A DNA stretch of 64,000 nucleotides from Candidatus Helarchaeota archaeon (GCA_019058315.1 JAHPZH010000004.1:288001-352000); one strand, 5' to 3'; shown: positions 2,628 to 42,083, counted from the first letter of the stretch. Notes: a model not told the origin generated them from the letters alone. Translations and numbers: made by a program.

Positions 2628-2705
2628 ATGTTACATTCATTATTTATTTTAAGGGATAACGGCGTTTGGGTTTACTACAACCATTATTTTTTGAAAAGAG
2701 TTTAG
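2628..2705 (+). pseudogene. Displaced 5' stub of the longin-domain gene (attL side of integrated element)
   Basis: Translates MLHSLFILRDNGVWVYYNHYFLKRV*, matching VLHSLFILRENGICVFERHW at 41112. Confidence 0.8.
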
Positions 2706-2851
2706 CCCCAAAATCAAGGAAATCCAAAAAAGCATAAAAAAAGTTTCCCAAACCACAATACCAAAAAATCAAAAATCGTTCACACTTTAAAAATTTTGAG
2801 ATTTTCATAAAACGAATTAGAAAAAAAGAGATAAAAGAAAAGTAAAAAAAT

Positions 2852-4981
2852 TTAGAATTTCAAAAATAGATATTCAACAAGTAGCAATAATTTCATAATT
2901 TGTCGGTATTTAACAACAGTCCTTCTACTACATTTATGTTTCTTCACTAAAGCACTAGCTTTAACATTCTTATTATTCTTTATTATGTCATGACAATCCT
3001 TCATTAATTCCAAAACATTTGACTTTTTTCCCATTCTTCCGTTTAAAGTGTTAAACTTTATTTTGAAATCATCCTTCAAAATCTTGTGCAAATAGCCATA
3101 ACTTACATCATGTTTTTCAGCAAACTTAACCCAATGTTTTTTCTCATTTGGAATTTCCTTCAATTTATGCTGTTTATTTACTTTTGTATTTAACTTTATT
3201 TCTATATCGTTAAAAAGTTCTTTTCTTTGTTCCTTTGATAACCTTTTCGACTTAGAATAATTTAGACCTCTAAATTTCTTTTTAGGAAAATAATTCTTTC
3301 GAATTGTTGAAATGTATGCTTCTGAAGTTTCAAATTGCTCTGCAAATTCTTTTTGATTTAGTTCTAAGCCATTATCTAAAATCCTTTGTAGTTCTTTGAT
3401 TATTTCCTCATTTTTATTATCCTCAGTAAATTGATTATGATATCTCTTTTTGATATAATTGTTGTAATGGTTTATATAATCGAAATTATGCTCATTTAGA
3501 AAATAATGTGTTATTGCCTTAGTTCTCCTATCCTTGAATAAAACTTTGGTTTGCCATTTCCAAGAAGCATAAATCTGTTTTGTATTTTGTAACTTATCAT
3601 AACTCTTTCGCATAGTCCTACTAACCTCTTTGTAAGTTGTATGCCCCATTAAAGCTATTGCCTCATCTGGATTCAAATGATGTTTGTGAAAATCTGAACC
3701 AATAACATACCTAATGTCATGATAATTCACCCATTTCTTTGATTGTTTAATTAATTCCTTTGGTTTAAAATTGAAATATCTCAAAAATTCATCTAATTCC
3801 TCAGATATTGCGTAATCTGTTAAGTAATATTTCTTTGAAACCTCCCGTAAATACACGTTTAAACTGTTTTCATACATTGCTTGTTCTAACTTAAATGGAG
3901 AAAATATTACATGCCTTATCTGAATCTTTGGGTTTAATTTTCCATTGATATACCTAATTCTATTTCTTGTTTTCATGGTAACAAAGCCCAATAATTTCAA
4001 TAACAAGATTAATTTGTATTCAAAGCCCTGAGGTTTAAATTCCTGAAACCTAGCCCTCGATTTACATTGAATGTTGCCATTTTTCAAAGAATCAATGTAA
4101 TATCTAATTTCCTTAAGAATGTTTCTTATAACCGGATGAATGTAAGAAAATTTCAATCCTCTTGGTTTTTTCTTATAAGAGATTACCCAATCATCTTTTT
4201 TCAAAAACCATAATTCTTTCTCATCAAATCTTAATTCGTTTATCAATTGTTCCTTAGTGTAAATATTCTCCCATTTTAACCGGCAAATTTCAATCCTTCT
4301 ACTACAAAAAGCCAAATTCATCATGAATGAAGCTAAATGTAACAAAGTTTTCAAATGAATCCCGCGTACAGTTTTTTGATCCTTGCTTTTCTTTAGTTCA
4401 ATTTCCGATTTATGAGCTAAATAGTCATCAAAGATACAATTTAGAGTTTTCATCAATAAATTTAGATTGTGATATTCTCTTTGTTTTCCAGATTCATCAA
4501 TGTCATAAGGTAATTCAAAACCCTTCATTACAAATTTCTGTAAATCCTCACTTTCAAAGAAACCTAATAGCAAAGAATAAGCCCTTGTTAAATAAGTTCT
4601 AATGGTTGTAATGTTCAATAGCCCTACTTTATTTTTAGCCATTAACCAATTATAATATTGATTAATTACTTGTTTATCAATTTCATGAACATAGTTTAAA
4701 CCTAAGTGTTTTTTTGCAAAAGTACAAATCCCATTTTTATGGTAAATTTGTTTTAATGCTTTTAATGAACTTGGTTTTCGTTTATTTTTGTAAATTCTCT
4801 TATATTCTGTTAATGCTTCATCTAATCGGATTTGTCTATAATCAGTTTTAAATCCCATTTCTTGAAAAGATTCTTTGAATGTATCTTTGAGAAAATCTTT
4901 GAATAACATAGCTTTCTCATCTTTGGATAAATCTTGTAAAACATCAGCAGTTTTTTTCTTTGGAATAATTGCATTAGCCAT
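2852..4981 (-). CDS. Tyrosine recombinase/integrase with long C-terminal multi-HTH extension
   Basis: Catalytic R (CSRRIEICRLKW), K (KKKPRG), HxxR (YHDIRY), H (LMGHT), Y (RKSYD). C-terminal HTH-like segments; located at the element end. Confidence 0.85.
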   Translation of the reverse strand: MANAIIPKKKTADVLQDLSKDEKAMLFKDFLKDTFKESFQEMGFKTDYRQIRLDEALTEYKRIYKNKRKPSSLKALKQIYHKNGICTFAKKHLGLNYVHEIDKQVINQYYNWLMAKNKVGLLNITTIRTYLTRAYSLLLGFFESEDLQKFVMKGFELPYDIDESGKQREYHNLNLLMKTLNCIFDDYLAHKSEIELKKSKDQKTVRGIHLKTLLHLASFMMNLAFCSRRIEICRLKWENIYTKEQLINELRFDEKELWFLKKDDWVISYKKKPRGLKFSYIHPVIRNILKEIRYYIDSLKNGNIQCKSRARFQEFKPQGFEYKLILLLKLLGFVTMKTRNRIRYINGKLNPKIQIRHVIFSPFKLEQAMYENSLNVYLREVSKKYYLTDYAISEELDEFLRYFNFKPKELIKQSKKWVNYHDIRYVIGSDFHKHHLNPDEAIALMGHTTYKEVSRTMRKSYDKLQNTKQIYASWKWQTKVLFKDRRTKAITHYFLNEHNFDYINHYNNYIKKRYHNQFTEDNKNEEIIKELQRILDNGLELNQKEFAEQFETSEAYISTIRKNYFPKKKFRGLNYSKSKRLSKEQRKELFNDIEIKLNTKVNKQHKLKEIPNEKKHWVKFAEKHDVSYGYLHKILKDDFKIKFNTLNGRMGKKSNVLELMKDCHDIIKNNKNVKASALVKKHKCSRRTVVKYRQIMKLLLLVEYLFLKF

Positions 4982-4982
4982 T

Positions 4983-5186
4983 TTATTTAACCTCCATATT
5001 AATCTTTTTTAATATATCATTCAAATTCAACTTATTTTCTTGGTATAGCTTAATCTCATTATTGGATAACCTATACAGAATTTTGTCTTTCGACCTCTTA
5101 CGGATTCTATCATACTTATCCACAATGAGATAGCCATAAACCTTTTCTTTCCAATACACAAGTTTAATTCTTACCGAAATAGCCAC
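4983..5186 (-). CDS. Small basic hypothetical protein (possible excisionase/recombination directionality factor)
   Basis: 67 aa, basic, 1 bp upstream of the integrase start. Function is a guess from position. Confidence 0.55.
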   Translation of the reverse strand: MAISVRIKLVYWKEKVYGYLIVDKYDRIRKRSKDKILYRLSNNEIKLYQENKLNLNDILKKINMEVK

Positions 5187-5219
5187 CTTCTTAAAATTTT
5201 TTTATTAACCATTTTGTAA

Positions 5220-5293
5220 ATATACGGAAATTATATTTTATAAATATTTCCGCATATCATCAGAAAACCGATTAAATTAACGATATACGGAAA
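5220..5293. promoter_or_regulatory. Three copies of the ATAT(A/G)CGGAAA motif, two as an inverted repeat around a TATA-like box
   Basis: ATATACGGAAA 5220-5230, TTTCCGCATAT 5247-5257, ATATACGGAAA 5283-5293, in a divergent intergenic region. Confidence 0.6.
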
Positions 5294-5421
5294 ACCTCCT
5301 ATCTCATTCAAAATCAAAAAATGGGAATTTCTAATCAAAATGGACACTTTTCGATTAATCGAAAAGTTTTTGTTTCAAGCTTACAAGATATATAGTTAGT
5401 TAGATTCAGGATCTGCTATCT

Positions 5422-5958
5422 TTGGTATTGATGATTTATTATAGAGATAAAAAAACAGGCATGGTTTCGGCTTTAAAGAAATATGCTGGAGAAAAGTTGA
5501 TCAATAAGCAACCGGAAGGTGAAGGACTTATCATTATCTATTGGCTTGGAGGTAAAAGGAAATATCCAAAGATTAAGGGGAAAGGAAAGGCAAAGTCAAG
5601 AATAACCTATATCGGAGAATGGGAATATTTCAAACCAATTCCATACAATTTAGCCAAAAAAATTAATTATAAAATCATAAATGATGAGATTATAATGAAA
5701 AAAATAACTGATAAAAAAGATATTCTAACAAACTTTGCTTTAAACTGCATTGATTTATATTCCGGTAAAAAACTATCAGATGAGTTGAAAGAGGGGATAA
5801 AAGAAGAATTCATTGACTTATATAACGAATTGAGGAAATTGATAATCGAACCTGCTGACTCTCCAAAAATTTATGATTCAAAAATACTAAAAAAGCAGGA
5901 TATTACTAAAAAAATTAAGGCACAAGATAAATGGGATGAATATATTCACGGTACTTGA
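5422..5958 (+). CDS. Hypothetical protein, basic beta-rich N-terminus (possible DNA-binding)
   Basis: 178-aa ORF; IYWLGGKRKY...ITYIG pattern resembles three-stranded DNA-binding modules of archaeal MGEs. Confidence 0.6.
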   Translation: MVLMIYYRDKKTGMVSALKKYAGEKLINKQPEGEGLIIIYWLGGKRKYPKIKGKGKAKSRITYIGEWEYFKPIPYNLAKKINYKIINDEIIMKKITDKKDILTNFALNCIDLYSGKKLSDELKEGIKEEFIDLYNELRKLIIEPADSPKIYDSKILKKQDITKKIKAQDKWDEYIHGT

Positions 5959-5959
5959 A

Positions 5960-6148
5960 ATGACTGAAAGTAAAAAAGATATTTTGGTAAGATTAATAGA
6001 TATCGAATTCGAATTAAACGCTACTAAAAAAATAGTTAAGAACTTAGAAAAAAAGATTGATGGATTAGTCGAATTATTGAAAAAATTCATAATAGTTAGT
6101 GAATCATTCCAAGCTTGTAAGGAATCTCTAGCAGAATTCGAATTTTGA
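5960..6148 (+). CDS. Small coiled-coil hypothetical protein
   Basis: ATG at 5960, 1 bp after the previous stop (ORF track start 5936); heptad pattern. Confidence 0.55.
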   Translation: MTESKKDILVRLIDIEFELNATKKIVKNLEKKIDGLVELLKKFIIVSESFQACKESLAEFEF

Positions 6149-6326
6149 AATGATTTAATTTCTTTTATCAGATTTCAATTGTCCAGGATTATTTATTTTA
6201 AAAATAGGTAATAATAATTATTAACTCACACAAAATCTAGAGAGATTTTGAATTAAAATATAGGAGATAGAAAAGATTAAACCTTCAAATACATATCTAT
6301 TAGATATAAAAGAATACTTAAACGAT

Positions 6327-7007
6327 ATGGTAATAATTTTTCCTAATAATAAACTTCATAATGCCAATCTAAAAATTTTAAATTCATTTTTAGAAGTGAA
6401 AAATCGTAAGAAACCCTTTAATTGTCAAAAATGTGGATTTTGTTGTTATTTTGATCCAAAAAGGGAATCAAAAGCCGGAATTACACTTCTTAAGGATGAA
6501 TATAAATTCTTTAGGAAATTAGCTGAAAAAGAGCAAATTGATATAAGATTAGATCATCGTGAGAGAGGATTCTTTTCATATTCATCTATTGATGAACCTC
6601 AATATTGTTTTTTATTTGATAAACAAAATAAGCTTTGTAAAATTTATGATAAGCGACCATTATATTGTAAACATTATCCATTATATCTTATGGATTCAAA
6701 TCCAATATTTGATAAAATTAGGATAAATCAGTCTATAATTTTTTCTTATATTCTTATTAATACAGTTTATTCTTGTAGAGAAATTAATCGTTTGTATGGA
6801 AAAAGCACAAAAATGAATTTATTTGAACTATATCTAACTTTAGATTTCTATTTCCCATCAACACTTCTAAATGATTTAAGAAAATTAGCAAAAATATATG
6901 AAAATGAATATTCAGATTTAAATGTAAAAGTAATTCTAAATTTTGAAGACTATATTGAGATTATATATAAAAATTACGTTGGAAATAAACCAGAATGGGA
7001 AATTTGA
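6327..7007 (+). CDS. YkgJ family (CxxCxxCC) cysteine-cluster protein
   Basis: FNCQKCGFCC...CFLFD...CKIYDKRPLYCKHYP signature. Confidence 0.88.
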   Translation: MVIIFPNNKLHNANLKILNSFLEVKNRKKPFNCQKCGFCCYFDPKRESKAGITLLKDEYKFFRKLAEKEQIDIRLDHRERGFFSYSSIDEPQYCFLFDKQNKLCKIYDKRPLYCKHYPLYLMDSNPIFDKIRINQSIIFSYILINTVYSCREINRLYGKSTKMNLFELYLTLDFYFPSTLLNDLRKLAKIYENEYSDLNVKVILNFEDYIEIIYKNYVGNKPEWEI

Positions 7008-7035
7008 ATAAATTTTTTCCCTCATTCAATATCAT

Positions 7036-7248
7036 TTATTTCTTCTCCCAAAAATAAAACTCGATAGCATCTCCCAGACTTTTAATCTTATTCTCAATCA
7101 AATCCTTTAACTCGGTAAGAAAATTTCTTAATTCAAAATTCTCATCAGTAATTTTTTTGCAAAAATCAACAATCTGATTATTTTTAACCCTTCTCCTGAC
7201 AAACTCTTCAAACGATAATTTCTTTTCATTTTCATCCATGTCGAACAA
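7036..7248 (-). CDS. Small coiled-coil hypothetical protein
   Basis: 70-aa ORF with plausible composition, converging on YkgJ. Confidence 0.5.
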   Translation of the reverse strand: MFDMDENEKKLSFEEFVRRRVKNNQIVDFCKKITDENFELRNFLTELKDLIENKIKSLGDAIEFYFWEKK

Positions 7249-7849
7249 CTCTTAATTATTGAGGGAAATCAAAAGTTTGACCAAATCGGGAACACTAAAG
7301 TTCTTGATAGACAAATTTACTTAACAAATGAAAATATTAAGCAACCTAATAAAGTTTGTGGAGTATCTGATAAGTAATAAGTGGAGAATCAGAGTATCTC
7401 AAAAGTATCAGAGAGTTAGAGTATTGTGAAAGTAAAACGGTAAATTTTAAAAAGAAGATTTTCTTGTTTTCTAATATATTATCTGGTTTATATAAAAACC
7501 CGACAATATATTAGTAAATCCCCAAACCACCGTTGGATCCTCAGATATTGAATTATTGAATTTCCCCTGTCACTTTTCAAAGTTAAAATTTCAAAATATG
7601 TTTCAGGACATCACAAATTTTAATTCTCAAAAACCCTAATATCATCAGATTAATTGCAAAAATTGGATATACAAACTTAATTTCATTATTTTAATTTCTC
7701 GGTTTAATTAAATCATTTTTTTTAGTTATAATAAGTATTTAATTATTTAAATAAGAATAATATCAAACAATAAATAGGTAAAATCAAAATTTTTTTTTGT
7801 CATTAATGTAAATAATAACTATTGTAATTTTTGGGAATTTGGTGAGATT

Positions 7850-9187
7850 TTGTCGAAACGATTATCATTGGAAGTAAAATCGATTAATGATTTGAAAATT
7901 CTTGATAAATACCCTCAATACTGGAAGGATATTACATCATTTTTAGTAATTAGCTCAAAAACCCTATCAATAAAAGATAAACAAGGTCTAATAAAAAGAT
8001 TAAAACAAATTAACATACCAATTCATGTTGAATCTTATTCTTGGTGGTTCACACATCCAAGAACTAAACAGAAATTATCAGATCCCGATAATAACCCAAA
8101 TTTTGAAAAAAACCCAAATTTATTATTTGCTATTCAAAATATCTCTGAAGATTTAATCTTAGAAGGATGGGAATCAACAATTCTCCATGATAAAAATTTT
8201 GATTGTATTGATAATTGGATAGGATATCAACGAAACTTGAATAAAAATTTTAGAAAAAAACAACAATCCCTAAATAAAATAAAATCTTTACGCTCAAGAT
8301 TAGTTAAAAAAGATGATGCGTGTGCTGAACTTGAGTCATTTTCCCTTCCATATATTCCAATTATCGATATTTCAGGTCATAAAGAAGAAGTAACAAATGC
8401 TATAAATGCAAATATTGAAATTATTAAATATTTCAATAATAAAAATACTCAAACATTTAAGAAGCAAGTGTGCCCATCAATAGTAATTAATTTTAAAGCA
8501 ATTGAATGTAAAAGTCTAGAAAAATTGGTAAATTTGATTAAAGATAATTTTGAAATGTGCTGGATTTGGTTCGTTGATATAGACGATAGAAAACTTCCAG
8601 AAATTGATATAAGAAAATTATGGAAATATATCAGATATCTAAATAGAGGGAGTAAAAAAATCTTTAGACTAAGATTGGGAGGATTTTTATCCCATAGATT
8701 CTTAAAAAATGAATTTCCATCAATTTGTTCTTTCATAGATGGTTGGGGTGCTTATAATTTTACACCAAATTATTATCAAGATGAAGAAGATATAACTTAT
8801 TATGGAAGAAAGAGACATGTTTTCTCCCCACAATTAGGAAGATTTGTTTCAGGCAATACTTTAAGTAAAGAGTTAGAGCAGAAAAAATGTAATTTCAAAT
8901 GTGATTGTTTTGCTTGTAAAAAACTAATTGCGGAATCAAAATTAACAATTCCAGAGATGGAGTATAAAAGAAATGAAGCTAGAAAAGAAGAGAAAAGATT
9001 GAACATAGAGTCAGTTGGTGTATCCCAAAATAAGCAATCAGAATTTTTAAGACTTCATGGTATGATATGTTTTTATAATTTATTAAAAATTAGTGATAAA
9101 GAATTCAGTAATCTTGAAAAAAAGTGGGTCAATCCAGGATTAAAAAAATGGAAAATCATAGAAAAAGAAATGAGTAGAGGTGATTAG
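7850..9187 (+). CDS. Hypothetical protein, possible TGT-like/beta-protein-like TIM barrel with CxCxxC...H Zn site
   Basis: Alternating beta/alpha pattern; CDCFAC followed later by LRLHG near the C-terminus; no DSGG motif. Confidence 0.5.
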   Translation: MSKRLSLEVKSINDLKILDKYPQYWKDITSFLVISSKTLSIKDKQGLIKRLKQINIPIHVESYSWWFTHPRTKQKLSDPDNNPNFEKNPNLLFAIQNISEDLILEGWESTILHDKNFDCIDNWIGYQRNLNKNFRKKQQSLNKIKSLRSRLVKKDDACAELESFSLPYIPIIDISGHKEEVTNAINANIEIIKYFNNKNTQTFKKQVCPSIVINFKAIECKSLEKLVNLIKDNFEMCWIWFVDIDDRKLPEIDIRKLWKYIRYLNRGSKKIFRLRLGGFLSHRFLKNEFPSICSFIDGWGAYNFTPNYYQDEEDITYYGRKRHVFSPQLGRFVSGNTLSKELEQKKCNFKCDCFACKKLIAESKLTIPEMEYKRNEARKEEKRLNIESVGVSQNKQSEFLRLHGMICFYNLLKISDKEFSNLEKKWVNPGLKKWKIIEKEMSRGD

Positions 9188-10223
9188 AATTAATCAATTA
9201 ATAGAAGAAAGTGAAGAAGATTTTAACGAAGATAATTATGATTTATTATTGATATTATTAAATAGTCTTTATCCAAAAACTATTCTAAAGACTCGTTTAA
9301 TGAAATTAAGTTGGTTTTTTTTTGAACTTGGAAATCTACCAAAGATATTAAATTTAGAAAATTACTCAATGGACTTTGAACCTCATTTACTTGGTGGAAG
9401 CGATTATGCTATTGATAATAATCTATCTATTATGGAAAATGATGGATTAATAGAAACAACACAGAGAGTATCAAACCAAGCAAATGATTATGAAGTAATT
9501 TCAATTAGAAAAGATAAACATGATGAAATTTCAGAAAATATAAAACAATATTGGATTGATAAAGAAGCAGATAAATTTATTAATTTAAATGATTTTAAAA
9601 ATTCCCTTGATATTTTTAATTCATTATTTAAAGATGATAATAGCCTGATTGGATTTTTATATAGATTAGATCCTGAAAGAACCAAGAACTCAATTATTAT
9701 TTCAAAAGTAAAGAAAATCATGACACCTGAAAAATTTAAGGATTGCATTTACAATATATTTCAAAATTTACGACCAATTTTTTCATTAACTTTGTTTTAT
9801 TCAAGAAAACAAGCGAATTCAGTAGTAAGAATTTTAAATAACGAAGAAAAAATCATTGAAATTAATACAGAATGGTTATATAATTTATCTGAAGCTTTGG
9901 TAAACCATTATTTAAAGAATGAAAATGAAATAATGAATAGAATAATAAGTAAACTAGCTGGTCAGATATCATTAAAATGTCGAACAGGAGGGTACGAACA
10001 ACTTGAGAAATATTTTGTTATTATTGAAGGATTATGGAGGTATAATTTATCGTCAGATATCCCAGTTGAATTCTTAAGACAAATAACCGTTAATCTTTTG
10101 TTTAATATTGAAAATAAACAATTATTAGAAACAGAGATTATAAATTTACAACAATTATTCAAAAAGCATGATCTTGAAATTACACCAAAAATTGACCTCT
10201 TTAAAACTTATTTACAGGTTTAG
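9180..10223 (+). CDS. Panacea/SocA (DUF4065)-like winged-helix protein with helical C-terminal extension
   Basis: KTRLMKLSWFF...FEPHLLGG...IDNNLSIMENDGLI pattern; overlaps the upstream gene by 8 bp. Confidence 0.6.
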   Translation: MIRINQLIEESEEDFNEDNYDLLLILLNSLYPKTILKTRLMKLSWFFFELGNLPKILNLENYSMDFEPHLLGGSDYAIDNNLSIMENDGLIETTQRVSNQANDYEVISIRKDKHDEISENIKQYWIDKEADKFINLNDFKNSLDIFNSLFKDDNSLIGFLYRLDPERTKNSIIISKVKKIMTPEKFKDCIYNIFQNLRPIFSLTLFYSRKQANSVVRILNNEEKIIEINTEWLYNLSEALVNHYLKNENEIMNRIISKLAGQISLKCRTGGYEQLEKYFVIIEGLWRYNLSSDIPVEFLRQITVNLLFNIENKQLLETEIINLQQLFKKHDLEITPKIDLFKTYLQV

Positions 10224-10226
10224 AAT

Positions 10227-11102
10227 TTGGATGAACGCACAAAAAGTATAAATTCATTAATTATTGACTCAGACGCCATTATCAATCTTTTTTTTGGGAC
10301 AGAAAACGCACGAAAAGACATAAAAACCATCATTAAAGATAGTGAGAATGTTTTCATCACCACTTACACAATAGGTGAGTTAAAAAGAGTCATCTTAAGT
10401 ACTTTAATAAATATTCATTATACAATCCAAAATTGGATCATTAAGGAGAAATGGGAAGATTTTAATAAAAAATTATTAATCCAGAGAAGTAGAGATATTT
10501 TTCTAAAACTATATGGAGGAAGCGAACGGAAAACTTTACGATTAAAAGAATTTTATATGTCGATATTTCTCGATTTCTTATCAGATACTTTTGATTTACC
10601 AATAAGAGATTCTAGAACTGTATTTTTAAAAAGATTAGAGAACTATATCGAGAATTTTGATGTTCTATTTATTAATGATGATTTTGAAAAAAGGAATAGT
10701 TCAATGAATTGTAATTGGCTAAATTATAAAATTCAAATAGAAAATAAGGAATTAAAATTTTATAAAAAGGGCTTTGGATGTTTAAAATTAAAATGTAATA
10801 CATTAAATGAGATATTGAAGTATTTTACATCAAATAAGGAAAGATTGCTAAAGGTTTATAAAATAAAAAATTTTAAACCAATTCCGAATTGGTATCCTAA
10901 TTTCAAAATGTTATTTAATTTATTTTTAAACAAGATGTTGGATAAAAGCTATAAAAGATTATCTTATAAATGTAAATCGTTAGGAGACTTAATTCTAATT
11001 ATCGACACTAATGAAAATGAAACTATCCTTACTTCAAATAATCGAGATTTTCAAGCTACAACTCATATTCTTGGAATCAATTTAATAATTTTTAAAAGAT
11101 GA
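10227..11102 (+). CDS. PIN-domain ribonuclease with large Cys-containing insertion
   Basis: IIDSDAII, TYTIGEL, LGDLIL and ILTSNNRDF supply the PIN acidic residues. Confidence 0.78.
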   Translation: MDERTKSINSLIIDSDAIINLFFGTENARKDIKTIIKDSENVFITTYTIGELKRVILSTLINIHYTIQNWIIKEKWEDFNKKLLIQRSRDIFLKLYGGSERKTLRLKEFYMSIFLDFLSDTFDLPIRDSRTVFLKRLENYIENFDVLFINDDFEKRNSSMNCNWLNYKIQIENKELKFYKKGFGCLKLKCNTLNEILKYFTSNKERLLKVYKIKNFKPIPNWYPNFKMLFNLFLNKMLDKSYKRLSYKCKSLGDLILIIDTNENETILTSNNRDFQATTHILGINLIIFKR

Positions 11103-11251
11103 TTGTTAATTTTAAAAATTAAATTTTATCGGCTTTTTCTAAACCCTAGATTCTCTAAAAGCTATTAGACTTGAAAAGGTATTAAGTTTAGCTCAGCTAA
11201 CCTGAAAGGTTCAAATTATTGTATGGTCGAATGTTTATAACCCAAAAATAA

Positions 11252-11996: not shown

Positions 11997-12025
11997 ATTC
12001 TAACTTCCTAAAAGTTAATTAATTA

Positions 12026-13383: not shown

Positions 13384-13399
13384 ATAGGAGAAACTATAT

Positions 13400-29577: not shown

Positions 29578-29606
29578 TAAGAAAAATCACCCTAAAAAAA
29601 AATAAA

Positions 29607-33890: not shown

Positions 33891-33930
33891 TTTCTTTTTA
33901 AATCATCTTTAATAACATTATTATTTTCCT

Positions 33931-34509
33931 TCACTTTTTCCCATATATTTTACCATTATGCTTTTTATCAAAACAATACAATTGCTCATCAATTTCGTGT
34001 AATGGTAAATTAATTTTGTCTTTTAAATCATAGATTTTTTTTGCATATTTTAAGTAAACATCTAAATCGTATTCATAATTCTGAATCGTTTTACCTGTCA
34101 AAGCCCTATTAGCCCTAACATCCAATATAGGAAAAATATCAGGTCTCAAGAACTTAAGAATCGTACTCGCCATTGGAACATTAACACCTTGACAATCAAG
34201 TAATTCAGATATGACTTTTTTAGTGTTTGAATCATCTATACTGAGTTTTTTAGATTTTGCTAATTTATCAAGATTTTGGATTACATTATCCGGAATATTC
34301 AATACTCTATTAATTTTCCATAAAGCGACTCTTCTTAAGTCATTAATAGATAATTTATTATTATTTCTTATTTCTGAAAACAATTCCTTCAAAGCATTTT
34401 TTTCCTCAAGATTGTAGTTATATGGAAAGTCTAACTTATCTTTTTTCGGATCATAAACCCTAATCTCATTTGAATTAACTTTTTTTTCTCCTTCCAATAA
34501 AAACACCAA
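33931..34509 (-). CDS. HhH-GPD/DNA-glycosylase-like protein
   Basis: LLDCQGVNVPMASTIL (HhH) followed by FPILDVRA (conserved Asp). Confidence 0.65.
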   Translation of the reverse strand: MVFLLEGEKKVNSNEIRVYDPKKDKLDFPYNYNLEEKNALKELFSEIRNNNKLSINDLRRVALWKINRVLNIPDNVIQNLDKLAKSKKLSIDDSNTKKVISELLDCQGVNVPMASTILKFLRPDIFPILDVRANRALTGKTIQNYEYDLDVYLKYAKKIYDLKDKINLPLHEIDEQLYCFDKKHNGKIYGKK

Positions 34510-34651
34510 TAAAACTAAATTTATTAAATCAATCGTTAAATTAATTAATTCAGGATTATTTTTACTTTTTCAAAAATTGAAAAATAATCCAGGAAGAAAT
34601 ACTTAGATATTTTATGACTTTTTAGCTTAAAATTGTAAAAAGAGAAAAATA

Positions 34652-34942
34652 TCAAAAGGTGTTATATTTTTCTTTATTAGAATTTTTTTTCTTCTTTAAT
34701 TTTTCAATGGTCTTTTTATAAGAATCCAAATTCTCGTCAATGTGTTTAATTAGAATGATAAAAAGGTCAGTCCACGATAAGCTAGGCAATCCTCCAACAT
34801 CTTTAATCTTAGTCTTTCTAACATCAAAAGCATTGTAAATAGGAAGCGGAATATTTCTAATATCTTTCTCCTTAATATCCCAATTCTTATCTAAGTTAAA
34901 TTTCTCCTCATTAAATTCGGAAACCATTAAAATAAACTCCAA
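34652..34942 (-). CDS. Small hypothetical protein (possible ribbon-helix-helix regulator)
   Basis: KDIRNIPLPIYNAF...LSWTDLFIILI fits a strand-helix-helix layout; likely ATG at 34927. Confidence 0.5.
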   Translation of the reverse strand: MEFILMVSEFNEEKFNLDKNWDIKEKDIRNIPLPIYNAFDVRKTKIKDVGGLPSLSWTDLFIILIKHIDENLDSYKKTIEKLKKKKNSNKEKYNTF

Positions 34943-35162
34943 ATACTAATTTTGACGTATATTTCTAATAACGGAAATAAACCTATATTTATAATAAAAT
35001 TACTTAGCTTCTGACATAAAAACTTAATGTATTATTGGGATAATGTACAGTATTTTTACTGTTAAAAGGGGCAAAAATATCCAAAAAAACCACTTACAAA
35101 TTTAAAATGGGTAAAGCCATATAAAATAGTAGCTAAATTCATAATATCAACCTTAAGGATTG

Positions 35163-35444
35163 ATGAAATTGGTTAGTTATAAAGACTTAATGAAAGAAAA
35201 ATGGTTTTTAGAAGCTTTTTCAAAACTTAAACAAAGTCAGGGAAACGCTAAAGCTTGTGCAAAACTAGCTGAAAAATTAAACATTCCAAGTTCAAACCGA
35301 ATGGGTTTTACAATTGCATGTCTAAAACATCTTAAGGATTTCGGCAAAATGCCAACAGAAGCAGAAGCTAAAGGTTGGGGTTTGGGAACTCCAATAAAAC
35401 AAGAAGATTTAGAGAAAGCTTTAGCAGAACTCGCTACCGTCTAA
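35163..35444 (+). CDS. Small basic helical protein; candidate nucleocapsid/major capsid protein
   Basis: 93 aa, Lys/Ala-rich, followed by a T-tract. Weak by-eye resemblance to the SIRV2-type MCP (see findings). Confidence 0.5.
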   Translation: MKLVSYKDLMKEKWFLEAFSKLKQSQGNAKACAKLAEKLNIPSSNRMGFTIACLKHLKDFGKMPTEAEAKGWGLGTPIKQEDLEKALAELATV

Positions 35445-35487: not shown

Positions 35488-36369
35488 TTGATGATAATAG
35501 AAGAATCAAAATTATTTATTAGTGTATTTTTAAATTATTTTTTCATAATTGCTTTCGCCATAGCTATTTCCTTATTCGTATTTTTCTTTATTATATATTA
35601 TAAATTCAGATATGACACATTAAAAAAGAAACTAAAAAAGAATAAGCATGTTATTTTAATGGATTTTATTGGAAATTGGGAGGATTTAGGGGAATACAAA
35701 AAAACTTCCTTATATAAAGGTGATTGGGCTATCTTTGTTGATAGACCTGAATATGAAACCTATAAAGGATATGTAATTGAGGTAGCAGATGGGGAATTGA
35801 GAAAATCAATGCTTGAATATGAAAATCATTATATTATTTTGACTGATTTTAAAGGATCTGATTTAGATAAAAGAAGGGTTAAGTGTCTAATTCACCAAGA
35901 TATTATTATTTGGGGTTTTAAAAAAGGAATTGAGAGAATTTATGAAAAATTAAATCCATTTATTCAAAAAATTAAGGATTTAGAAATAATTAACAAAGAA
36001 ATCAGCGATAGATATAATGTAACGGTAAAAAATGCCATATTAGACCGTTACATAACTACTAGAAAACAAGAAGATTCCATGCAACCATTCTGGAATGAAA
36101 TGGATAAAAGAATTTACGCCCCAAGTATAATAATAGCAGGAGAAATGAAAAAAGTAATGGATAAAGAAGAAAGTTTGTCAGAAGACATTATTAATGTTGC
36201 AAAACTGAAAGAAGAAGAAATTAACCCATTTAGGAAGCTAGAAATTAAAGAATCAAGCTTATCCAATTTAGAAGAAGTTAAGGAGTTAGAAATTGCCAAA
36301 AAAGAAGCAAAAACCAAAGAGAATAATAAAAAAAGTAAAAAAGATAAAAAAAACCATAAAGACAACTAA
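35488..36369 (+). CDS. Single-pass membrane protein with coiled-coil cytoplasmic region
   Basis: N-terminal TM, soluble domain, charged tail. Confidence 0.7.
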   Translation: MMIIEESKLFISVFLNYFFIIAFAIAISLFVFFFIIYYKFRYDTLKKKLKKNKHVILMDFIGNWEDLGEYKKTSLYKGDWAIFVDRPEYETYKGYVIEVADGELRKSMLEYENHYIILTDFKGSDLDKRRVKCLIHQDIIIWGFKKGIERIYEKLNPFIQKIKDLEIINKEISDRYNVTVKNAILDRYITTRKQEDSMQPFWNEMDKRIYAPSIIIAGEMKKVMDKEESLSEDIINVAKLKEEEINPFRKLEIKESSLSNLEEVKELEIAKKEAKTKENNKKSKKDKKNHKDN

Positions 36370-37885
36370 AAAATTAGAGTTTTCAACTGAACCTGACAAA
36401 ATAACTATTAAAAAAATTGAATTTGGGCTTAAAATTTTATCAGAAGATAGAATAACTTTCTTACATGCGATTACACACACCCAAAGAAATAAATATCTTG
36501 AACAAAGATACCCCGATTTTCCAAAACAAATTAAAATTGAAATTGCAAAGGCAATTCACGATGTAATGAACGGAATTATCCAGCATTTAAGCCAATTGAA
36601 TGTTTTTCTTGATGATTACAAAGATGATAAGGATATACCTTTTCTTCTTGAAAATATAAAAGAACATGCTAAAAATATAATTTCATTTGTTAATCTTTCG
36701 GGTTTTTCTATTTTAGATGATATGCAATTAAGGGCAAATTATTATCAAATTACATTTGATTTAATAAAGATTTTAGGATTAATTGAATGTTTAAAAAATC
36801 CTCAAGATAGTGAAATAGCTAAAATTTTCGATTTAAATTTAAGTTCAATCCGATTTAATGAGAAATTAATAATCTTAATTAGTGAAATAAACCAAGAATC
36901 GTTAAAAGATAACATTTTAATTGATAAATGGGTAATGGGGTTAGAAACAACTAATGAAATGATGATCCATTTTAAATACATGGTTAAAAACCTTAGTAGC
37001 TATTTTTTCCTTATTCGATCAAGCAATTACCCCATAAAAGAATATATCATTTCAGCAATTTTCAGGGTAATTTATTTTATTAATGAATTAATTTTACCAA
37101 TAAATTTTGATGAAGGAAGGGTTTATGTTTCTCCAAGAGATTACATTGAAATCTTTGCAAAATATGAAAATAATCTGAGGGAATTAATAGGTTTATTGGA
37201 AATATTTTTTCAAAACTTCAATCATTTAGCCATAAAACCAACTGAAAGTAATGTGATTGAATTATATGTTGCAAAAGATTGTAGATTATGCAAGATTTTT
37301 TTTGAAAACAAGTTATTTGAGTACATACAAAATATGTCTATTAATCTGGATAAAGGATTAGCAATTTACGACTCAACAGATGATATTAACGCTTTAGCTA
37401 GACGTTTCTTTTATACAATTAAATTTGTTCCTTCAATTAGATTTCCAAGCATTTCAAATAATTGGAAATGGTTAAATATATTCCCATTTAAAGATGAGGA
37501 ACAAGATGAAAAGTTAGATATTGCACCTTCAGAAGCTTGTAAAACTGCCACTATTGAAATAAATAATTATCTCTTTGGGGCTTTTTCAAATATCATTCCA
37601 ACTCTTAATAAAAGCAAAACTCAGAAAAAAGGAAAAAATAAGAATAGGGAAAAATATTTGGTTAAATTGAATAAAATAATGGAGATATTTCAAAAAGATC
37701 CTGAAACTCCATTAACAATTAAAGAAATTACTGATGAAATAAAAGAAAATTACAGCAATACTAATTATTTTTGTAAGAAATTAATCAAAAAAGGGATTTT
37801 ATATACCGAAGATCCGAAAAGTCTGAGGGTTAAAGCTTATAGATTAAATTTTGATAAATACAATTTCGAAGTTCAAAGGAGTTAA
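36293..37885 (+). CDS. Hypothetical protein: helical N-terminus, thioredoxin-like CxxC segment, C-terminal winged helix
   Basis: IELYVAKDCRLCK...IKFVPSIRF (Trx-like, cis-Pro VP); PLTIKEITDEI...CKKLIKKGIL...AYRL (wHTH); AGGAG before TTG. Confidence 0.62.
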   Translation: MPKKKQKPKRIIKKVKKIKKTIKTTKKLEFSTEPDKITIKKIEFGLKILSEDRITFLHAITHTQRNKYLEQRYPDFPKQIKIEIAKAIHDVMNGIIQHLSQLNVFLDDYKDDKDIPFLLENIKEHAKNIISFVNLSGFSILDDMQLRANYYQITFDLIKILGLIECLKNPQDSEIAKIFDLNLSSIRFNEKLIILISEINQESLKDNILIDKWVMGLETTNEMMIHFKYMVKNLSSYFFLIRSSNYPIKEYIISAIFRVIYFINELILPINFDEGRVYVSPRDYIEIFAKYENNLRELIGLLEIFFQNFNHLAIKPTESNVIELYVAKDCRLCKIFFENKLFEYIQNMSINLDKGLAIYDSTDDINALARRFFYTIKFVPSIRFPSISNNWKWLNIFPFKDEEQDEKLDIAPSEACKTATIEINNYLFGAFSNIIPTLNKSKTQKKGKNKNREKYLVKLNKIMEIFQKDPETPLTIKEITDEIKENYSNTNYFCKKLIKKGILYTEDPKSLRVKAYRLNFDKYNFEVQRS

Positions 37886-37980
37886 AAGTTTGAAGTACAG
37901 ATTAAAAGATTTTTCAAAAACCATTAATTTAATCTCGAACTTCTACCCACCAATCAATTCAAAATCTATCGAGTCAGGGA

Positions 37981-38574
37981 TTGAAATTGGAAATAAGTTA
38001 TAATCAATACGGATTGCAAATAAACAAGAAAGTTTTCAGCATATTACAATTTTACAGATTAGAAACCTTTAATACCGATTTATTAGAAATAATCAAAGAA
38101 TCCATTAAAGAAAAGAAAGCTAATTCAATAATTTTAAAAAATAATGCAGAAATTAAAGCTTATGAGAAAATAAAAACCGATAAACCAATAAAAAATCTTG
38201 GTTATACGAATATAGGGTTAAATGTTGAAAAAAATCTTTATCATTTATGTAATTTGACTGAAAATCATAAAGAACTAAATGAAAAGCTTATTTTATTAAT
38301 TAAAGACTCAATTAAAACGCTTAAAAATAACTCTATAATCCTAAAGAATGATAAAAAGATTGAAGCGATACATGAAAACATCTATAATGAAATTACAAAT
38401 GAATTATGTTGGGGAAAATTAGCTTATTGTTGTCATTGTAAAAAAGATGATTGCATCAGAGTTATTGTTCTTAAGGAATTGGGAATTTCTAATAAAGAAT
38501 ATACAGAAATTAAAGATAAAATGGAGTTGGAATTTCAAAAATTAGTTAGAAAAAAGAAACCCGAATGGTTTTGA
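37981..38574 (+). CDS. Internally duplicated (RHH-like) protein with C-terminal Cys cluster
   Basis: Repeat IIKESIKEKKANSIILKN / LIKDSIKTLKNNSIILKN; CWGKLAYCCHCKKDDCIR. Confidence 0.62.
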   Translation: MKLEISYNQYGLQINKKVFSILQFYRLETFNTDLLEIIKESIKEKKANSIILKNNAEIKAYEKIKTDKPIKNLGYTNIGLNVEKNLYHLCNLTENHKELNEKLILLIKDSIKTLKNNSIILKNDKKIEAIHENIYNEITNELCWGKLAYCCHCKKDDCIRVIVLKELGISNKEYTEIKDKMELEFQKLVRKKKPEWF

Positions 38575-38616: not shown

Positions 38617-39591
38617 TTATTTTATCTCCAAATCTTTAAGAAATTCGTCTAAAAAAGAAAAATCTTGTTCAGTCGGTTTGTATTTTCGAGTAGGATGTTT
38701 CACATTATTTCTAAGGATGTTTAATTCATCAATACTTCTTAAAAATGCTTTTTTATTGCTTTGAAAGTTTGAAAATGGTTTTTGGTTTATAAAATGTTTC
38801 CAATTTTTATCTATAATTTCTTTTAATTCTACTATATCCGTATAGTCATATACTTTTCCTTGACCCTTAGCCTTCTCATATTTTTTACTACACTCTATTC
38901 TAATACGTTCAGGAATTCCTTCAAACCACCAATCCCGATTATCTGGGAATACATCTTTTAAAATTATTTCAATTTTTTTATGAATACAATTTTCAATTTT
39001 ATCCATTTTATCAATTGCTTGATGTTTCTCCACATCTTGTGGCTCGGTATATTTTTCTTTTTTTATTGATTTATTTTTAAATTCTTTTAAATAATTCCTG
39101 CCAAGATTTGAAATAGTCCAAAAATAATGATGCTTTCTATCAATCATCCCAAGATCTTCTAAATATCTCCCAATCCTCCAAAATAAAGCTGTTTTTATTT
39201 GTTCATCTTCCATTTCGTTAATTTCTTTTAAAAGTTTTTTATACTCCACATCGCATCTTGAAGGATTTACATTCCATTTATTATTCAGGATTTCTAAAAT
39301 TTTAATTCCCACACTAAAAAATAGTGGCTTTTCTAACGATTCTTCATGTATTAATATACCGATAGAGCCAATCTGTATATCTGCAAATTCCGTTCCCAAA
39401 TAACGTTTCCACCTAAAATAGTCTTTAGATTGTCCATCATAAAGTTCTTTTTTCAAGTTTTTTTCATCAATATTTTGATCAAAGTTTGATATTTTTGTTA
39501 AAAGTTCGTTAAATGATATAACCTCATCATTTAATTCATTTTGATATAAAATTTTTAAAATTACTTCTTGAATTACACTAGTTTCCATCAT
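38617..39591 (-). CDS. Tandem winged-helix + Swt1-like HEPN domain protein
   Basis: C-terminal IENCIH...DWW...YDYTDIVELKEII.KNW..F...LRNNVKHP (RxxxxH). Confidence 0.78.
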   Translation of the reverse strand: MMETSVIQEVILKILYQNELNDEVISFNELLTKISNFDQNIDEKNLKKELYDGQSKDYFRWKRYLGTEFADIQIGSIGILIHEESLEKPLFFSVGIKILEILNNKWNVNPSRCDVEYKKLLKEINEMEDEQIKTALFWRIGRYLEDLGMIDRKHHYFWTISNLGRNYLKEFKNKSIKKEKYTEPQDVEKHQAIDKMDKIENCIHKKIEIILKDVFPDNRDWWFEGIPERIRIECSKKYEKAKGQGKVYDYTDIVELKEIIDKNWKHFINQKPFSNFQSNKKAFLRSIDELNILRNNVKHPTRKYKPTEQDFSFLDEFLKDLEIK

Positions 39592-39592
39592 T

Positions 39593-39889
39593 TTATGCGA
39601 CTTCTAAACCTGTTTTTCTCAATTCTTCACGTAATATTCTTAAAAATTGCGTTTTCAATTCAAATTTTGTTTGTTGATAGAATGAATCTTGAATAGATGT
39701 TTTTAAACTGACTGATATAGATCCAGATTCAAACTTAACTTTAATATCTAAATCTGAAAGTTTTGAAAACTTCGGATAGATATTCTTTACGATTAAGAAA
39801 AATTTCTTTTTAGCTGTTTCAACTGCATCATTAACCGCTTTCATTATATTTTGTCCACCGATTATATTGCCAGATTTCAATTTTATCAA
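39593..39889 (-). CDS. Hypothetical protein
   Basis: 98 aa; 1 bp upstream of the HEPN gene. Confidence 0.55.
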   Translation of the reverse strand: MIKLKSGNIIGGQNIMKAVNDAVETAKKKFFLIVKNIYPKFSKLSDLDIKVKFESGSISVSLKTSIQDSFYQQTKFELKTQFLRILREELRKTGLEVA

Positions 39890-39918: not shown

Positions 39919-40272
39919 TTAATATTGGGGAATAATTTCCATTTTTTTTAATTTTCTTCCATCAATTTCTTCTATGTCCCTAATGGTTTTTAATCTATTA
40001 GCCAAACCTTTGATTAATATACTATGACTGTTATAATCCGTTGTTACCTCTTCTCCATCATCAAATATCATCTTCAACTGAAATTTTACGGGTTCTTCTT
40101 CCTCTTTATCATCCAAAGCTTGTAATTCCCCACTCTCAAACTTTTTGACTTCTTCAGGTGTAGCTTTTCTAATCGTAACAGTTGTTGATCTCCTCAATTT
40201 TGGCTTATACACGTCTTTAACCCAATAATAATAATATTTTTTTCCCGATTTGATTTTTTTTATTCTTGGCAT
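39919..40272 (-). CDS. Hypothetical protein with basic GKKYYY beta-sheet DNA-binding-like N-terminus
   Basis: MPRIKKIKSGKKYYYYWVKDVY pattern; C-half similar to 40478-40705. Confidence 0.65.
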   Translation of the reverse strand: MPRIKKIKSGKKYYYYWVKDVYKPKLRRSTTVTIRKATPEEVKKFESGELQALDDKEEEEPVKFQLKMIFDDGEEVTTDYNSHSILIKGLANRLKTIRDIEEIDGRKLKKMEIIPQY

Positions 40273-40477
40273 TGATTAACCTATGGGAAGGAAGTATTTT
40301 AAAGTTCACATTCGACAAAATCAACCGACAATATGCGGAACTATTCTCTTATACTAAAATATTCGATAAATCTTTAATTAATTAAATAACCAATTAAAAT
40401 TATTGTCGGAAATTTGCGGAAAAAACCATCTCGAAAAAAGCTCAATTTCATGTTGTAATAGCAATATATCAAAAAAA

Positions 40478-40705
40478 TTAGTTTATTGGAATTGGTTCAA
40501 TTATTAATTTCCTATACATTCTTTTTTTTTGCATAAATTTATCTAATTTAAATAATCTGTTTACCAAAGCCCCCATACTTTTATAAGAAACTCTTTCAAG
40601 ATTCCCATTTCCCCAATTAATGATTAGCCGGTATTTCAAACCATCTTTTTTATTTTGCAAGTAATTGCCTCCTGAATGGAAACTGTATTTCAAATGAGAT
40701 CCCAT
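40478..40705 (-). CDS. Small hypothetical protein
   Basis: 75 aa; KYRL..NWGNG...YKS...L similar to the C-half of 39919-40272. Confidence 0.55.
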   Translation of the reverse strand: MGSHLKYSFHSGGNYLQNKKDGLKYRLIINWGNGNLERVSYKSMGALVNRLFKLDKFMQKKRMYRKLIIEPIPIN

Positions 40706-41111
40706 CTTGGCATTAACTTCTTAATATTTTTATTGTAAATGATTCTAATATAAAAACTTTATATATAATCTTATTAGGTAACATACGGAAATTCTCATAA
40801 TCTTTATATAAATGATGTAGAAAACTTCTTATTTTACTTGACAAAAACGTAAGTTTAACTTTAATTGGTCTATTTTTGCTCTAATTACCGATAAATTAAG
40901 AATATAATTATATACTTATTGCTAACATAGTATTAATATTATAATACTCTCTATTTTTAGCCCTAACATGCAAAAAACCTTCATACCCATACTTTCTTAT
41001 TCCCGCCCTCCCACCCTTTTCAATGGGTAACAATTTTTGATTTAGTCATAAGGCGGTTTTAGAAACTTTTGAACCTTGTACTCTTCTAAATTTAACGGAA
41101 TGACGAAAAAA

Positions 41112-42083
41112 GTGTTGCATAGTTTATTTATACTTAGAGAAAACGGCATTTGTGTATTTGAGAGGCACTGGATTGAGACGGACATCGACGCACATCTGTT
41201 CTCTGGCTTTATAACTGCCTTAAGCGCCTTTGCAGTCGAATCTATGGGTAAAACATTCCAATCGCTGAAATTGGTTAAAGAGCAGAGACTTGCAATTTTA
41301 AAACATCCCTATGCACCTATTATAGGTGTCATAATCGCGGATTACAGGGATAATGGGTATTTATTAAATAAAATTCTTGAGAAAATTTTGAATAAGTTTT
41401 ATCAGATCTTTCAAACTGAAATAAAAATTGAAGATGCCTCATTAATTGGCAAAACAAAAGAGAAATTCCCACAAGAAATTGATATCATACTAAAAGGAAA
41501 AACTGCAGAGCGGAGTTTTGTTTCATTATTTATTGGTTTCTTAGCTGGGAGTGGTCTTTCAGTAATAATAATTCTATTTATTTTAAGTTGGGGAATAAAT
41601 TTTGCCTATGGGGGTGGAATACAAAATTTATTTTTTGCTCCTATTTTTATTAATCTATTTGATGGTATGCAACCCTGGGAATTTCTAGACATTCAACAAA
41701 TTGCTGTTATCGCTATGGGACTCGTTTTTGTATTTTTCCTTCTTACATATTTCGGTCCTGGTTTATTAGGCGCTTATATTGCTGGCAATCGGAAATTAGG
41801 GGTAATTAATGGACTATTATCTGTCATAGGAGGATTATTAATTGCCCTAATTTTTCAAAATATACAATTATTTCTATATTCAATTAATATGCTACCTGTA
41901 TTTGTTGGATTTTCTCCATTAATAATAATATTAAATATATTAACAGGATATTTTGGAGGTCTATTAAGAGAAATATATAGGTTATATCCCTTACCTGGGA
42001 AAGATATATCAGAAAAAGTAATGAAACATGTAACAATCTTAGTTAAAAAAACCTTTCCATCGTTAGATAAATCTGAAGATTGA
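41112..42083 (+). CDS. Longin-like domain protein with C-terminal multi-TM region (integration target, restored)
   Basis: LHSLFILRENGICVF...LFSGFITALSAFA...IGVIIAD...LEKILNKF is the Asgard longin-like pattern; ~5 TMs follow. GTG 41112 aligns with ATG 2628; alternative starts 41100 or 41076. Confidence 0.78.
   Translation: MLHSLFILRENGICVFERHWIETDIDAHLFSGFITALSAFAVESMGKTFQSLKLVKEQRLAILKHPYAPIIGVIIADYRDNGYLLNKILEKILNKFYQIFQTEIKIEDASLIGKTKEKFPQEIDIILKGKTAERSFVSLFIGFLAGSGLSVIIILFILSWGINFAYGGGIQNLFFAPIFINLFDGMQPWEFLDIQQIAVIAMGLVFVFFLLTYFGPGLLGAYIAGNRKLGVINGLLSVIGGLLIALIFQNIQLFLYSINMLPVFVGFSPLIIILNILTGYFGGLLREIYRLYPLPGKDISEKVMKHVTILVKKTFPSLDKSED

Follow-up and report, generated by a model that had tools for sequence, protein, structure and literature searches.

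A probable composite integrative island with a conserved membrane-glycoprotein system in a Candidatus Helarchaeota genome

The genomes closest to the eukaryotic ancestor are those of Asgard archaea, and they are shaped by mobile elements that are few in number and little understood. The DNA described here is a stretch of 64,000 nucleotides (hereafter the window; C1:288001-352000) from a Candidatus Helarchaeota archaeon (GCA_019058315.1), an Asgard genome of 5.79 Mb, ~30% GC and 12 contigs. Positions 2658 to 41152 of the window hold a 38.5-kb region, which we call the island. To its left the window encodes Get3/ArsA, RpiA and a GNAT acetyltransferase; to its right lie HisRS, the tRNA-splicing endonuclease EndA, radical-SAM enzymes, ferredoxins and an acyl-CoA dehydrogenase. 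All are ordinary host genes. No tRNA gene or Rfam family that could be an integration target was found in the window. The gene at the right end of the island (41076-42083, plus strand) encodes a protein of 335 residues, which combines four transmembrane helices with an N-terminal domain shared with many paralogs (roadblock-like by eye).

An insertion at a conserved gene junction

Even the nearest sequenced relative of the genus is distant, at ~60% amino-acid identity. The locus was compared in two relatives, G001 (same family) and G005 (a different family of the same order). In both, RpiA directly adjoins, within ~40-240 bp, the best ortholog of the 41076 gene. The gene order is Get3, acidic transmembrane protein, RpiA and ortholog in G005; in G001 it is EndA, further genes, ortholog, RpiA and acidic transmembrane protein. 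The source genome has the same outer flanks, yet the GNAT gene (2027-2560) and 38.5 kb separate RpiA from the 41076 gene. The 38.5-kb region is an insertion into the otherwise conserved junction between RpiA and the roadblock-transmembrane gene. A preliminary description, made from the sequence of the window alone, had allowed that the region might turn out to be conserved core genome in relatives; with RpiA directly preceding the target ortholog in G001 and G005, it is not. The boundaries proposed in that description, 2658 and 41152, hold: they fall on a hexamer common to both ends, and synteny with G001 and G005 breaks there.

The first 12-15 codons of the target gene have been duplicated, and the two diverged copies mark the ends of the island. 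No exact repeat of 16 nt or longer flanks the region, and matches of 9-11 nt are at chance level in AT-rich DNA. The shared hexamer, AACGGC (2658-2663 and 41146-41151), lies inside a ~45-nt imperfect direct repeat. At the left, attL-like end, the repeat forms an orphan reading frame of 25 codons (2628-2705, plus strand) that copies the 5' end of the target gene and begins MLHSLFILRDNG. At the right, attR-like end, the matching N-terminus of the 41076 gene runs VLHSLFILRENG... from a GTG at 41112. Searched against its own genome by tblastn, the orphan frame has this N-terminus as its best match (E 4.5e-4, same orientation), the next being at E 0.13; genome-wide, either copy is the top match of the other. 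The two repeats are identical at 26/36 nucleotides (~72%) up to and including the core, and at 11/24 past it. Most nucleotide differences ahead of the core leave the residue unchanged (Ser TCA/AGT, Leu TTA/CTT, Arg AGG/AGA). Past the core, only the right copy keeps the consensus C-V/I-F/Y-x-R-H-Y/W of the orthologs in G001 and G005; the left copy drifts and stops after its 25 codons.

Because the differences before the core are mostly synonymous and the consensus past it is kept only on the right, both of which fit, we favour a model of crossover with an attP that mimicked the target. A circular form would have recombined with the chromosome through the tyrosine recombinase candidate Int1, described below. 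The crossover would have fallen in a short identical core (AACGGC or nearby), within an attP resembling the 5' end of the target gene. The element would give the interrupted gene a surrogate start, from GTG 41112, and the original start would be left stranded at 2628. Islands and prophages that integrate into a gene end carry a surrogate copy of that end, which results in a direct repeat, an integrase beside one repeat and an intact gene. Such elements usually target the 3' ends of tRNA or protein genes, whereas here a membrane-protein gene has its 5' end duplicated, in a repeat of unusual divergence. An empty site in relatives, the second copy of the target 5' end and the probable recombinase beside the left repeat bear out the earlier proposal of an integrative element.

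Two features of the neighbourhood are recorded here. The GNAT gene, between RpiA and the left repeat, is missing at the junction in both G001 and G005, so that either DNA was added to the site on two or more occasions or GNAT was lost in the relatives. Throughout the source genome, more than 20 paralogs of the target gene's N-terminal domain occur, and full-length orthologs of the gene occur as tandem pairs there (C2:73081-74944) and in several relatives.

At 27.6% GC, the island lies at the 2.3rd percentile among 38.5-kb intervals of its own genome, and its tetranucleotide distance at the 89th-95th percentile. Base composition within it is uneven, rising from 26.5% GC at the left to 31% in the membrane operon described below. 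Nearly all of its open reading frames (ORFs) are single-copy in the genome. The largest glycoprotein of the membrane operon (641 residues), the profile of its family and Int1 were found in none of 300 other Asgard species genomes.

The preliminary description counted two tyrosine recombinases, and the count stands firmly for one and as a probability for the other. Int2 (402 residues, 21046-22254) is the last gene of a minus-strand operon (21046-22689) that also encodes an 81-residue Cys-rich protein and a 75-residue protein. Its Pfam match is weak (E 0.008), and its ESM features score 0.98 to archaeal integrases. Two distant homologs were found among the 300 Asgard genomes (in G183 and G213). 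Both exceed the Phage_integrase Pfam cut-off, and R201, R312, H338 and Y346 of Int2 are conserved in both. These homologs and catalytic residues confirm the prediction of Int2 as a tyrosine recombinase, sited inside the element rather than at its end. A six-frame search of the whole genome with PF00589 gave three matches, one of which is Int2; no relative of it was found in IMG/VR.

Int1 (2852-4981, minus strand, 709 residues) is an ORFan located 150 nt from the left repeat. Its ESM-Atlas features score 0.98 to Phage_integrase clusters, and the motif order R..K..HxxR..GH..Y, read by eye, fits. A C-terminal extension of ~230 residues carries helix-turn-helix-like segments. Neither 5.8e9 proteins nor the 300 Asgard genomes yielded a homolog, and searches of Pfam, PHROGs, NCBIfam and PDB, as well as hhalign, returned no match; nor is Int1 similar to Int2 by BLASTP or hhalign. 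The features and motif order point to a probable tyrosine recombinase.

The membrane operon and its relatives

The largest module of the island is a minus-strand operon of nine genes (24497-33288). All nine encode transmembrane segments, in agreement with the earlier description of a nine-gene membrane operon. In transcription order the products are a 274-residue transmembrane protein, glycoproteins of 311 and 641 residues, a 140-residue transmembrane protein, a 298-residue glycoprotein with a CarboxypepD_reg domain, a CPBP/Rce1-like protease of 281 residues, and three polytopic proteins of 262, 437 and 223 residues. The protease and the CarboxypepD_reg domain are the parts that Pfam recognises. 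The 311-, 641- and 298-residue proteins have large ectodomains rich in N-glycosylation sequons (13, 7 and 11, respectively).

A second, divergent arm on the plus strand (35488-38574) encodes a 293-residue membrane-anchored protein with a transmembrane segment, a 530-residue thioredoxin-like protein and a 197-residue Cys-rich protein. The thioredoxin-like protein (36293-37885; 439 residues according to the gene caller) has a CxxC...cis-Pro motif and a winged helix-turn-helix-like C-terminal tail. C330, C333 and P380 are invariant in an alignment with its homologs. Against PDB profiles the two best matches of the family are weak (thioredoxin, E 0.023; glutaredoxin-related protein, E 0.14). A word-indexed search found no homolog of the protein; its homologs surfaced only through synteny. 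Members of this CxxC...Pro family, which belongs to no described family (36293-37885 in the window, L018:5893-7326 and L025:1702-2988), are always divergently paired with the membrane operon. The winged helix-turn-helix-like tail occurs only in the window copy. Between the two arms lie four small genes (33438-35444), for a transmembrane protein of 150 residues and for proteins of 192, 96 and 94 residues; the 192-residue protein matches phrog_24538, a family of unknown function (E 1.8e-7).

Relatives of the operon are few. The 641-residue protein has four at ~32% identity, on contigs of 110-154 kb, and its profile retrieved only 15 clusters from 1.84e9 representative proteins. The system was found in 1/301 Asgard species genomes, and the metagenome contigs that bear it range from 31 to 50% GC. 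One locus (L009) has counterparts of the 311-, 641-, 140- and 298-residue proteins in the order of the window, at 34-41% identity. The whole arrangement is present in L018/L019 (50% GC) and L025 (44% GC). Here L018 and L025 also have homologs of 35488-36369 and 36293-37885, in the same order and in divergent orientation (pairwise E 1e-6 to 1e-10). Three further loci (L016, L017 and L027) have part of the arrangement. In L016 the glycoprotein pair adjoins a UQ_con/EAP30 gene, a host-type Asgard gene.

The operon and the divergent gene pair constitute a conserved, undescribed system of 11-12 genes and ~14 kb. This system is real, under selection, rare and patchy. Because it is a multi-gene system conserved in other organisms, it is more than random cargo. 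At L018:13053-14591 (JGI 3300033149) the CarboxypepD_reg protein and the CPBP protease are fused into one protein of 512 residues; their counterparts in the window are separate, adjacent genes (27400-29138). The fusion ties these two neighbours together functionally. A second, larger variant of the system is seen in two loci of 27-29% GC (L006 and L011), which have more than 15 kb of unknown genes in common, in one block: the glycoprotein pair, the CPBP protease, a protein of ~1000 residues, a radical-SAM SPL-like enzyme and a run of small ORFs. No ATPase appears among the recorded families of the related loci, and an HMM (hidden Markov model) of the Int2 family found no integrase in those that were fetched. 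Searches found no member of the 641-residue family in IMG/VR, GTDB species genomes or GenBank virus records, and no relative of the 311-residue protein in IMG/VR.

The 641-residue protein was also examined at the level of its fold. The model of the full-length protein had a predicted local distance difference test score (pLDDT) of 65.8. Because a structure search with this model was swamped by the C-terminal helices, we refolded the ectodomain alone. The resulting model (pLDDT 72.8; predicted template-modelling score 0.67) is all-beta with very long strands. Template-modelling scores were at most 0.13 with Foldseek against PDB and at most 0.26 in the ESM Atlas, and the sequence profile found nothing in PDB. 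The ectodomain matched no fusexin (Fsx1, HAP2), class II fusion protein, pleolipovirus spike or capsid, with a model too poor to exclude them.

The palindrome-bracketed block and other genes

Two palindromes, each with 14-nt arms and a 6-nt spacer (7476-7509 and 22758-22791), bracket an inner block of 15.3 kb. They are the only two copies in the 5.8-Mb genome, and none occurred in 100 shuffles. Each sits in a divergent intergenic region, the right-hand one ~70 nt upstream of the Int2 operon. Their arms differ at 2/28 positions and their spacers at 5/6. This pattern suits binding sites of a single protein better than a fresh attL/attR pair. The palindromes may serve as operators for a single regulator or, for Int2, as heterospecific recombination sites.

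The bracketed block comprises a three-gene operon, a protein with a restriction-endonuclease domain, a type III restriction-modification system and the Int2 operon. Its first part (7850-13978) contains three coupled ORFs of 445, 347 and 291 residues with no known family, two small minus-strand ORFs, the 376-residue protein with the endonuclease domain and a 192-residue transmembrane protein. The 376-residue protein matches Pfam DpnII-MboI (E 1.8e-12) and, weakly, PADLOC Aga_Helical-REase; a paralog lies at C5:906219. The restriction-modification operon (14270-20518, minus strand) encodes Mod (599 residues), Res (872 residues) and a second Mod (611 residues), with Pfam matches to N6_N4_Mtase (E 5e-33 and 3e-16), ResIII (E 3e-20) and RE_endonuc (E 5e-9). 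A type III system is defined by Mod and Res in one operon, and both are present here in that arrangement. The block may be either an older, nested second element or a co-regulated defence cassette.

Near the right end is a minus-strand module of two genes (38617-39889), for a 98-residue protein and then a 324-residue HEPN (Swt1-like) protein. The Pfam HEPN_Swt1 match (E 2.9e-5) is below the cut-off, and PADLOC PDC-M34B is a weak match for the module. The pair occurs at three places in the genome (here, at C1:390216-391059 and at C11:742737-743549), with 41-50% identity, and is probably a mobile toxin-antitoxin or defence pair. The defence modules of the preliminary description are thus recovered as the type III system, the DpnII/MboI-type endonuclease-domain protein and a weak HEPN match.

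The remaining genes are small. On the left (4983-7248) are a 67-residue ORF coupled to Int1, ORFs of 178 and 70 residues, a 226-residue CxxCxxCC Zn/Fe-binding protein and a second ORF of 70 residues; the CxxCxxCC protein has a Pfam match (E 2.4e-10) and the others belong to no family. Four plus-strand ORFs lie between the right-hand palindrome and the membrane operon (23085-24178): one of 102 residues with two transmembrane helices, two tandem paralogs of 63 residues (63% identity) and one of 85 residues; PHROGs gave no significant match for them. The C11 copy of the HEPN pair is 8 kb from a paralog of the 63-residue protein at 23605-23796. Two small basic ORFs of 117 and 75 residues close the right end (39919-40705, minus strand). 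They match no family and, judged by composition only, may be DNA-binding accessory proteins.

Hallmark genes, mobility and the origin of the island

Absences of hallmark genes were established at the level of sequence profiles, and the fold level covered the 641-residue protein only. At the profile level the preliminary description was right that capsid, terminase, replicase and conjugation ATPase are missing: Pfam, PHROGs, NCBIfam and PADLOC gave no capsid, portal, terminase, replicase, primase, MCM, Rep or transfer ATPase. The Walker A motif [GA]xxxxGK[ST] occurs in none of the ORFs of at least 40 residues in the region. The description had credited Res with the only clear P-loop. That there is none elsewhere stands, but Res itself carries only the superfamily 2 helicase motif.

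Particular families of elements were considered in turn. For tailed proviruses and verdandiviruses, no Pfam or PHROG family of HK97-fold capsids, portals or large terminases was found among ORFs of at least 60 residues. For skuldviruses, there was neither a profile match to a double-jelly-roll capsid or FtsK/HerA-type packaging ATPase nor any P-loop ATPase. For integrative and conjugative elements, no P-loop ATPase and no Pfam or NCBIfam family indicated a VirB4/TraG/HerA-type transfer ATPase or a relaxase. The region has no Walker A motif to suggest the spindle-virus assembly ATPase (B251/pI-like), and the 102-residue ORF with two transmembrane helices (23085-23393) has no significant PHROG match to the His1/SSV-type capsid protein. 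The 94-residue protein was tried as a SIRV2-like capsid and set aside, having no match in PDB or PHROGs, an absence that does not exclude it. Candidate iterons amounted to weak, short tandem repeats. A k-mer scan of the genome found no CRISPR (clustered regularly interspaced short palindromic repeat) array; the one candidate, at C10:1, is a coding repeat.

The state of the island in the sampled population was read from assembled contigs, which drop rare variants, leaving only the dominant form visible. The probable source run is the only sequencing run in which island DNA was found, and no RNA run is listed as containing it. One 55.7-kb contig of this run covers window positions 1-20000, from the flank across the junction and 17 kb into the island, and its depth stays level there at 19.5-21. 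The source-run contigs show neither a credible joint nor a loose end at 2660 or 7490, and no small circular contig was seen. Reported joints with sides of 21-31 nt, or from other runs, were treated as noise. The integrated form dominates at single copy, and in the sampled population the island behaves as fixed and quiescent.

We consider it probable that the region is a composite integrative genomic island of ~38.5 kb, built in three layers. The first would be an Int1 backbone of small ORFan genes. The second would be the nested, palindrome-bracketed block of 15.3 kb with Int2, the type III system, the endonuclease-domain protein and the three-gene operon of unknown function. The third would be the conserved ~14-kb system, whose 11-12 genes encode three N-glycosylated ectodomain proteins anchored in the membrane, the CPBP/Rce1-like protease, five or six polytopic proteins, a transmembrane-anchored protein and the thioredoxin-like CxxC protein. 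From its predicted make-up, we infer that this third layer would form a complex of glycoproteins at the cell surface, with the protease and the redox protein acting in its maturation, and would alter the host envelope; such a complex may serve in adhesion, exclusion or contact. The evidence does not establish the island as a provirus. Between the terms that the preliminary description had offered, 'composite' suits a nested block with its own integrase. 'Decaying' does not, because the genes are intact and tightly packed, even though the end repeats have diverged and no excision was seen.

Several points weigh against a composite island of this kind. No HMM, structure or homolog backs Int1. 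At just ~72% identity and with exact runs of 6-8 nt, the end repeats are no more than presumptive att sites and too diverged to prove a recent integration event. The GNAT gene between RpiA and the left repeat means that the locus has been altered more than once. The divergence of the palindrome spacers (5/6) argues against a recent attL/attR pair. No excised, circular or empty-site form was seen in the contigs, and mobility is historical at best. Finally, the fold-level look took in 1 of ~45 ORFs, and a hidden capsid or replicase may remain among the others.

A provirus that lacks a capsid and is coated by a membrane, or an integrative plasmid transmitted in vesicles, is unlikely in our estimate; in such an element the membrane system would be a particle-building module (spikes, envelope proteins and maturation protease) and the small ORFs would package or regulate DNA. 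The rarity and patchiness of the system (1/301 Asgard genomes; 15 clusters in 1.84e9; 31-50% GC) would suit the core of a mobile element. Here the system sits within an insertion that has a probable integrase beside one end, its neighbours at other loci are mostly small ORFans, and the 102-residue protein beside the operon has the size and layout of spindle-virus capsid proteins (bioRxiv 10.1101/2021.07.29.453957). Yet profile searches found no assembly or packaging ATPase and no replication protein, and PHROGs gave no match to structural families. The ectodomain model resembles no fusion, spike or capsid fold; the system has no relative in IMG/VR or GenBank virus records; and its relatives lie on contigs of up to 154-202 kb, one of them beside a host ubiquitin/ESCRT-type gene. 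Nor was there a small circular contig, and depth equals that of the chromosome.

A pile-up of unrelated insertions at a hotspot—GNAT, an Int1 piece, the Int2 defence block, the membrane system and the HEPN pair—is doubtful. On that view the 2628 fragment would be no att site but what is left of a tandem paralog since lost, an explanation to which the tandem paralogs of the target-gene family (C2:73081-74944) lend some weight, as do the extra GNAT gene at the same junction, the uneven GC (26.5% at the left to 31% in the operon), two unrelated integrases and the diverged end repeats. However, no more than the first 12-15 codons survive in the fragment, beyond which the ortholog consensus is lost, exactly as an att crossover predicts. 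A dead paralog would not decay by mostly synonymous differences of the kind seen before the core, the probable recombinase gene is 150 nt away, and the two relatives have a single gene, not a tandem pair, at the site.

We give slightly less credence to the proposal that the membrane system, with its two or three glycoproteins, forms the particles of a family of mobile elements, so far undescribed, that are wrapped in membrane, have no capsid and belong to Asgard and related archaea; these elements would spread as enveloped particles or vesicles without an ATPase and of which the island would be an integrated member. It is very improbable that the region is ordinary host chromosome, lineage-specific and vertically inherited: its genes are all intact, its depth equals that of the flanks and the genus lacks a close sequenced relative, but synteny breaks exactly at the repeats, the composition is atypical, two integrases, one confirmed and one probable, are present and the region's proteins, bar two distant Int2 homologs, were not found in 300 Asgard genomes.

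Returning to the composite island, its closest counterparts are the integrated elements of Atabeyarchaeia. These are 1.3-40 kb long, with divergent tyrosine integrases, restriction-modification cargo, nested mini-elements and mostly unannotatable genes, and their classes include 'defense islands' and two unclassified elements (PMC11529989, Valentin-Alvarado et al. 2024). The likeness lies in chromosomal insertion in an Asgard host, divergent integrases, restriction-modification cargo, nesting and unannotatable genes. Those elements have exact 11-bp att motifs, read evidence of excision and circles and, in some, superfamily 3 helicases, whereas this island has a 45-nt diverged repeat of a protein gene's 5' end, no excised form seen and no helicase or replicase found. 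The largest module here, the conserved membrane system, is without mention in the passages of that study on which we draw. Elements of the Atabeyarchaeia type are the best fit for the island, although its target, the divergence of its repeats, the ORFan recombinase and the membrane system set it apart.

HeimV1 of Ca. Heimdallarchaeum endolithica (Wu et al. 2022, PMC8813620), a putative integrative virus, is likewise an integrase-bearing element of similar size (30 kb) in an Asgard chromosome, with mostly unknown genes. HeimV1 sits beside a tRNA gene, circularises and replicates (V-shaped coverage), and has predicted tail-fibre and ParB-like genes (PMC8813620); none of these features was found here. 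Two hallmarks define wyrdviruses, a His1-like capsid protein and an assembly ATPase (Medvedeva et al., bioRxiv 10.1101/2021.07.29.453957). They and other spindle-shaped viruses are non-lytic, with membrane-associated virions, small two-helix hydrophobic proteins, an adhesin, some integrases and more than 90% of genes without relatives (bioRxiv 10.1101/2021.07.29.453957). Genomes of spindle-shaped viruses are at most 20 kb, and neither their capsid protein nor their assembly ATPase was found here by profile or motif. Pleolipoviruses and the vesicle-borne plasmids of haloarchaea (pR1SE) are capsid-less, have a membrane with element-encoded proteins and can integrate. Pleolipoviruses possess a conserved NTPase and a spike of known fold; by comparison, the island has no NTPase (by Walker A motif), no spike match and no sequence link that we could find.

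The most valuable lead is the conserved membrane system, rather than the missing hallmarks as such. The case offers a rare, conserved membrane-glycoprotein system that is without recognised family (bar the CPBP protease and CarboxypepD_reg domains) or known fold. As a particle or vesicle module, the system would give archaeal DNA a new means of travel; as a surface complex, it would be a new piece of Asgard cell-envelope biology that is horizontally carried. The case also offers an integration with clear limits at the start of a protein gene, which the element would have provided with a surrogate start, and a probable recombinase with no detectable relative among 5.8e9 proteins.

Elsewhere in the window, beyond the island, positions 55000-57816 encode a protein of 938 residues with 13 LVIVD repeats. 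At 43-44% GC in a genome of ~30%, this looks like a recent foreign gene.

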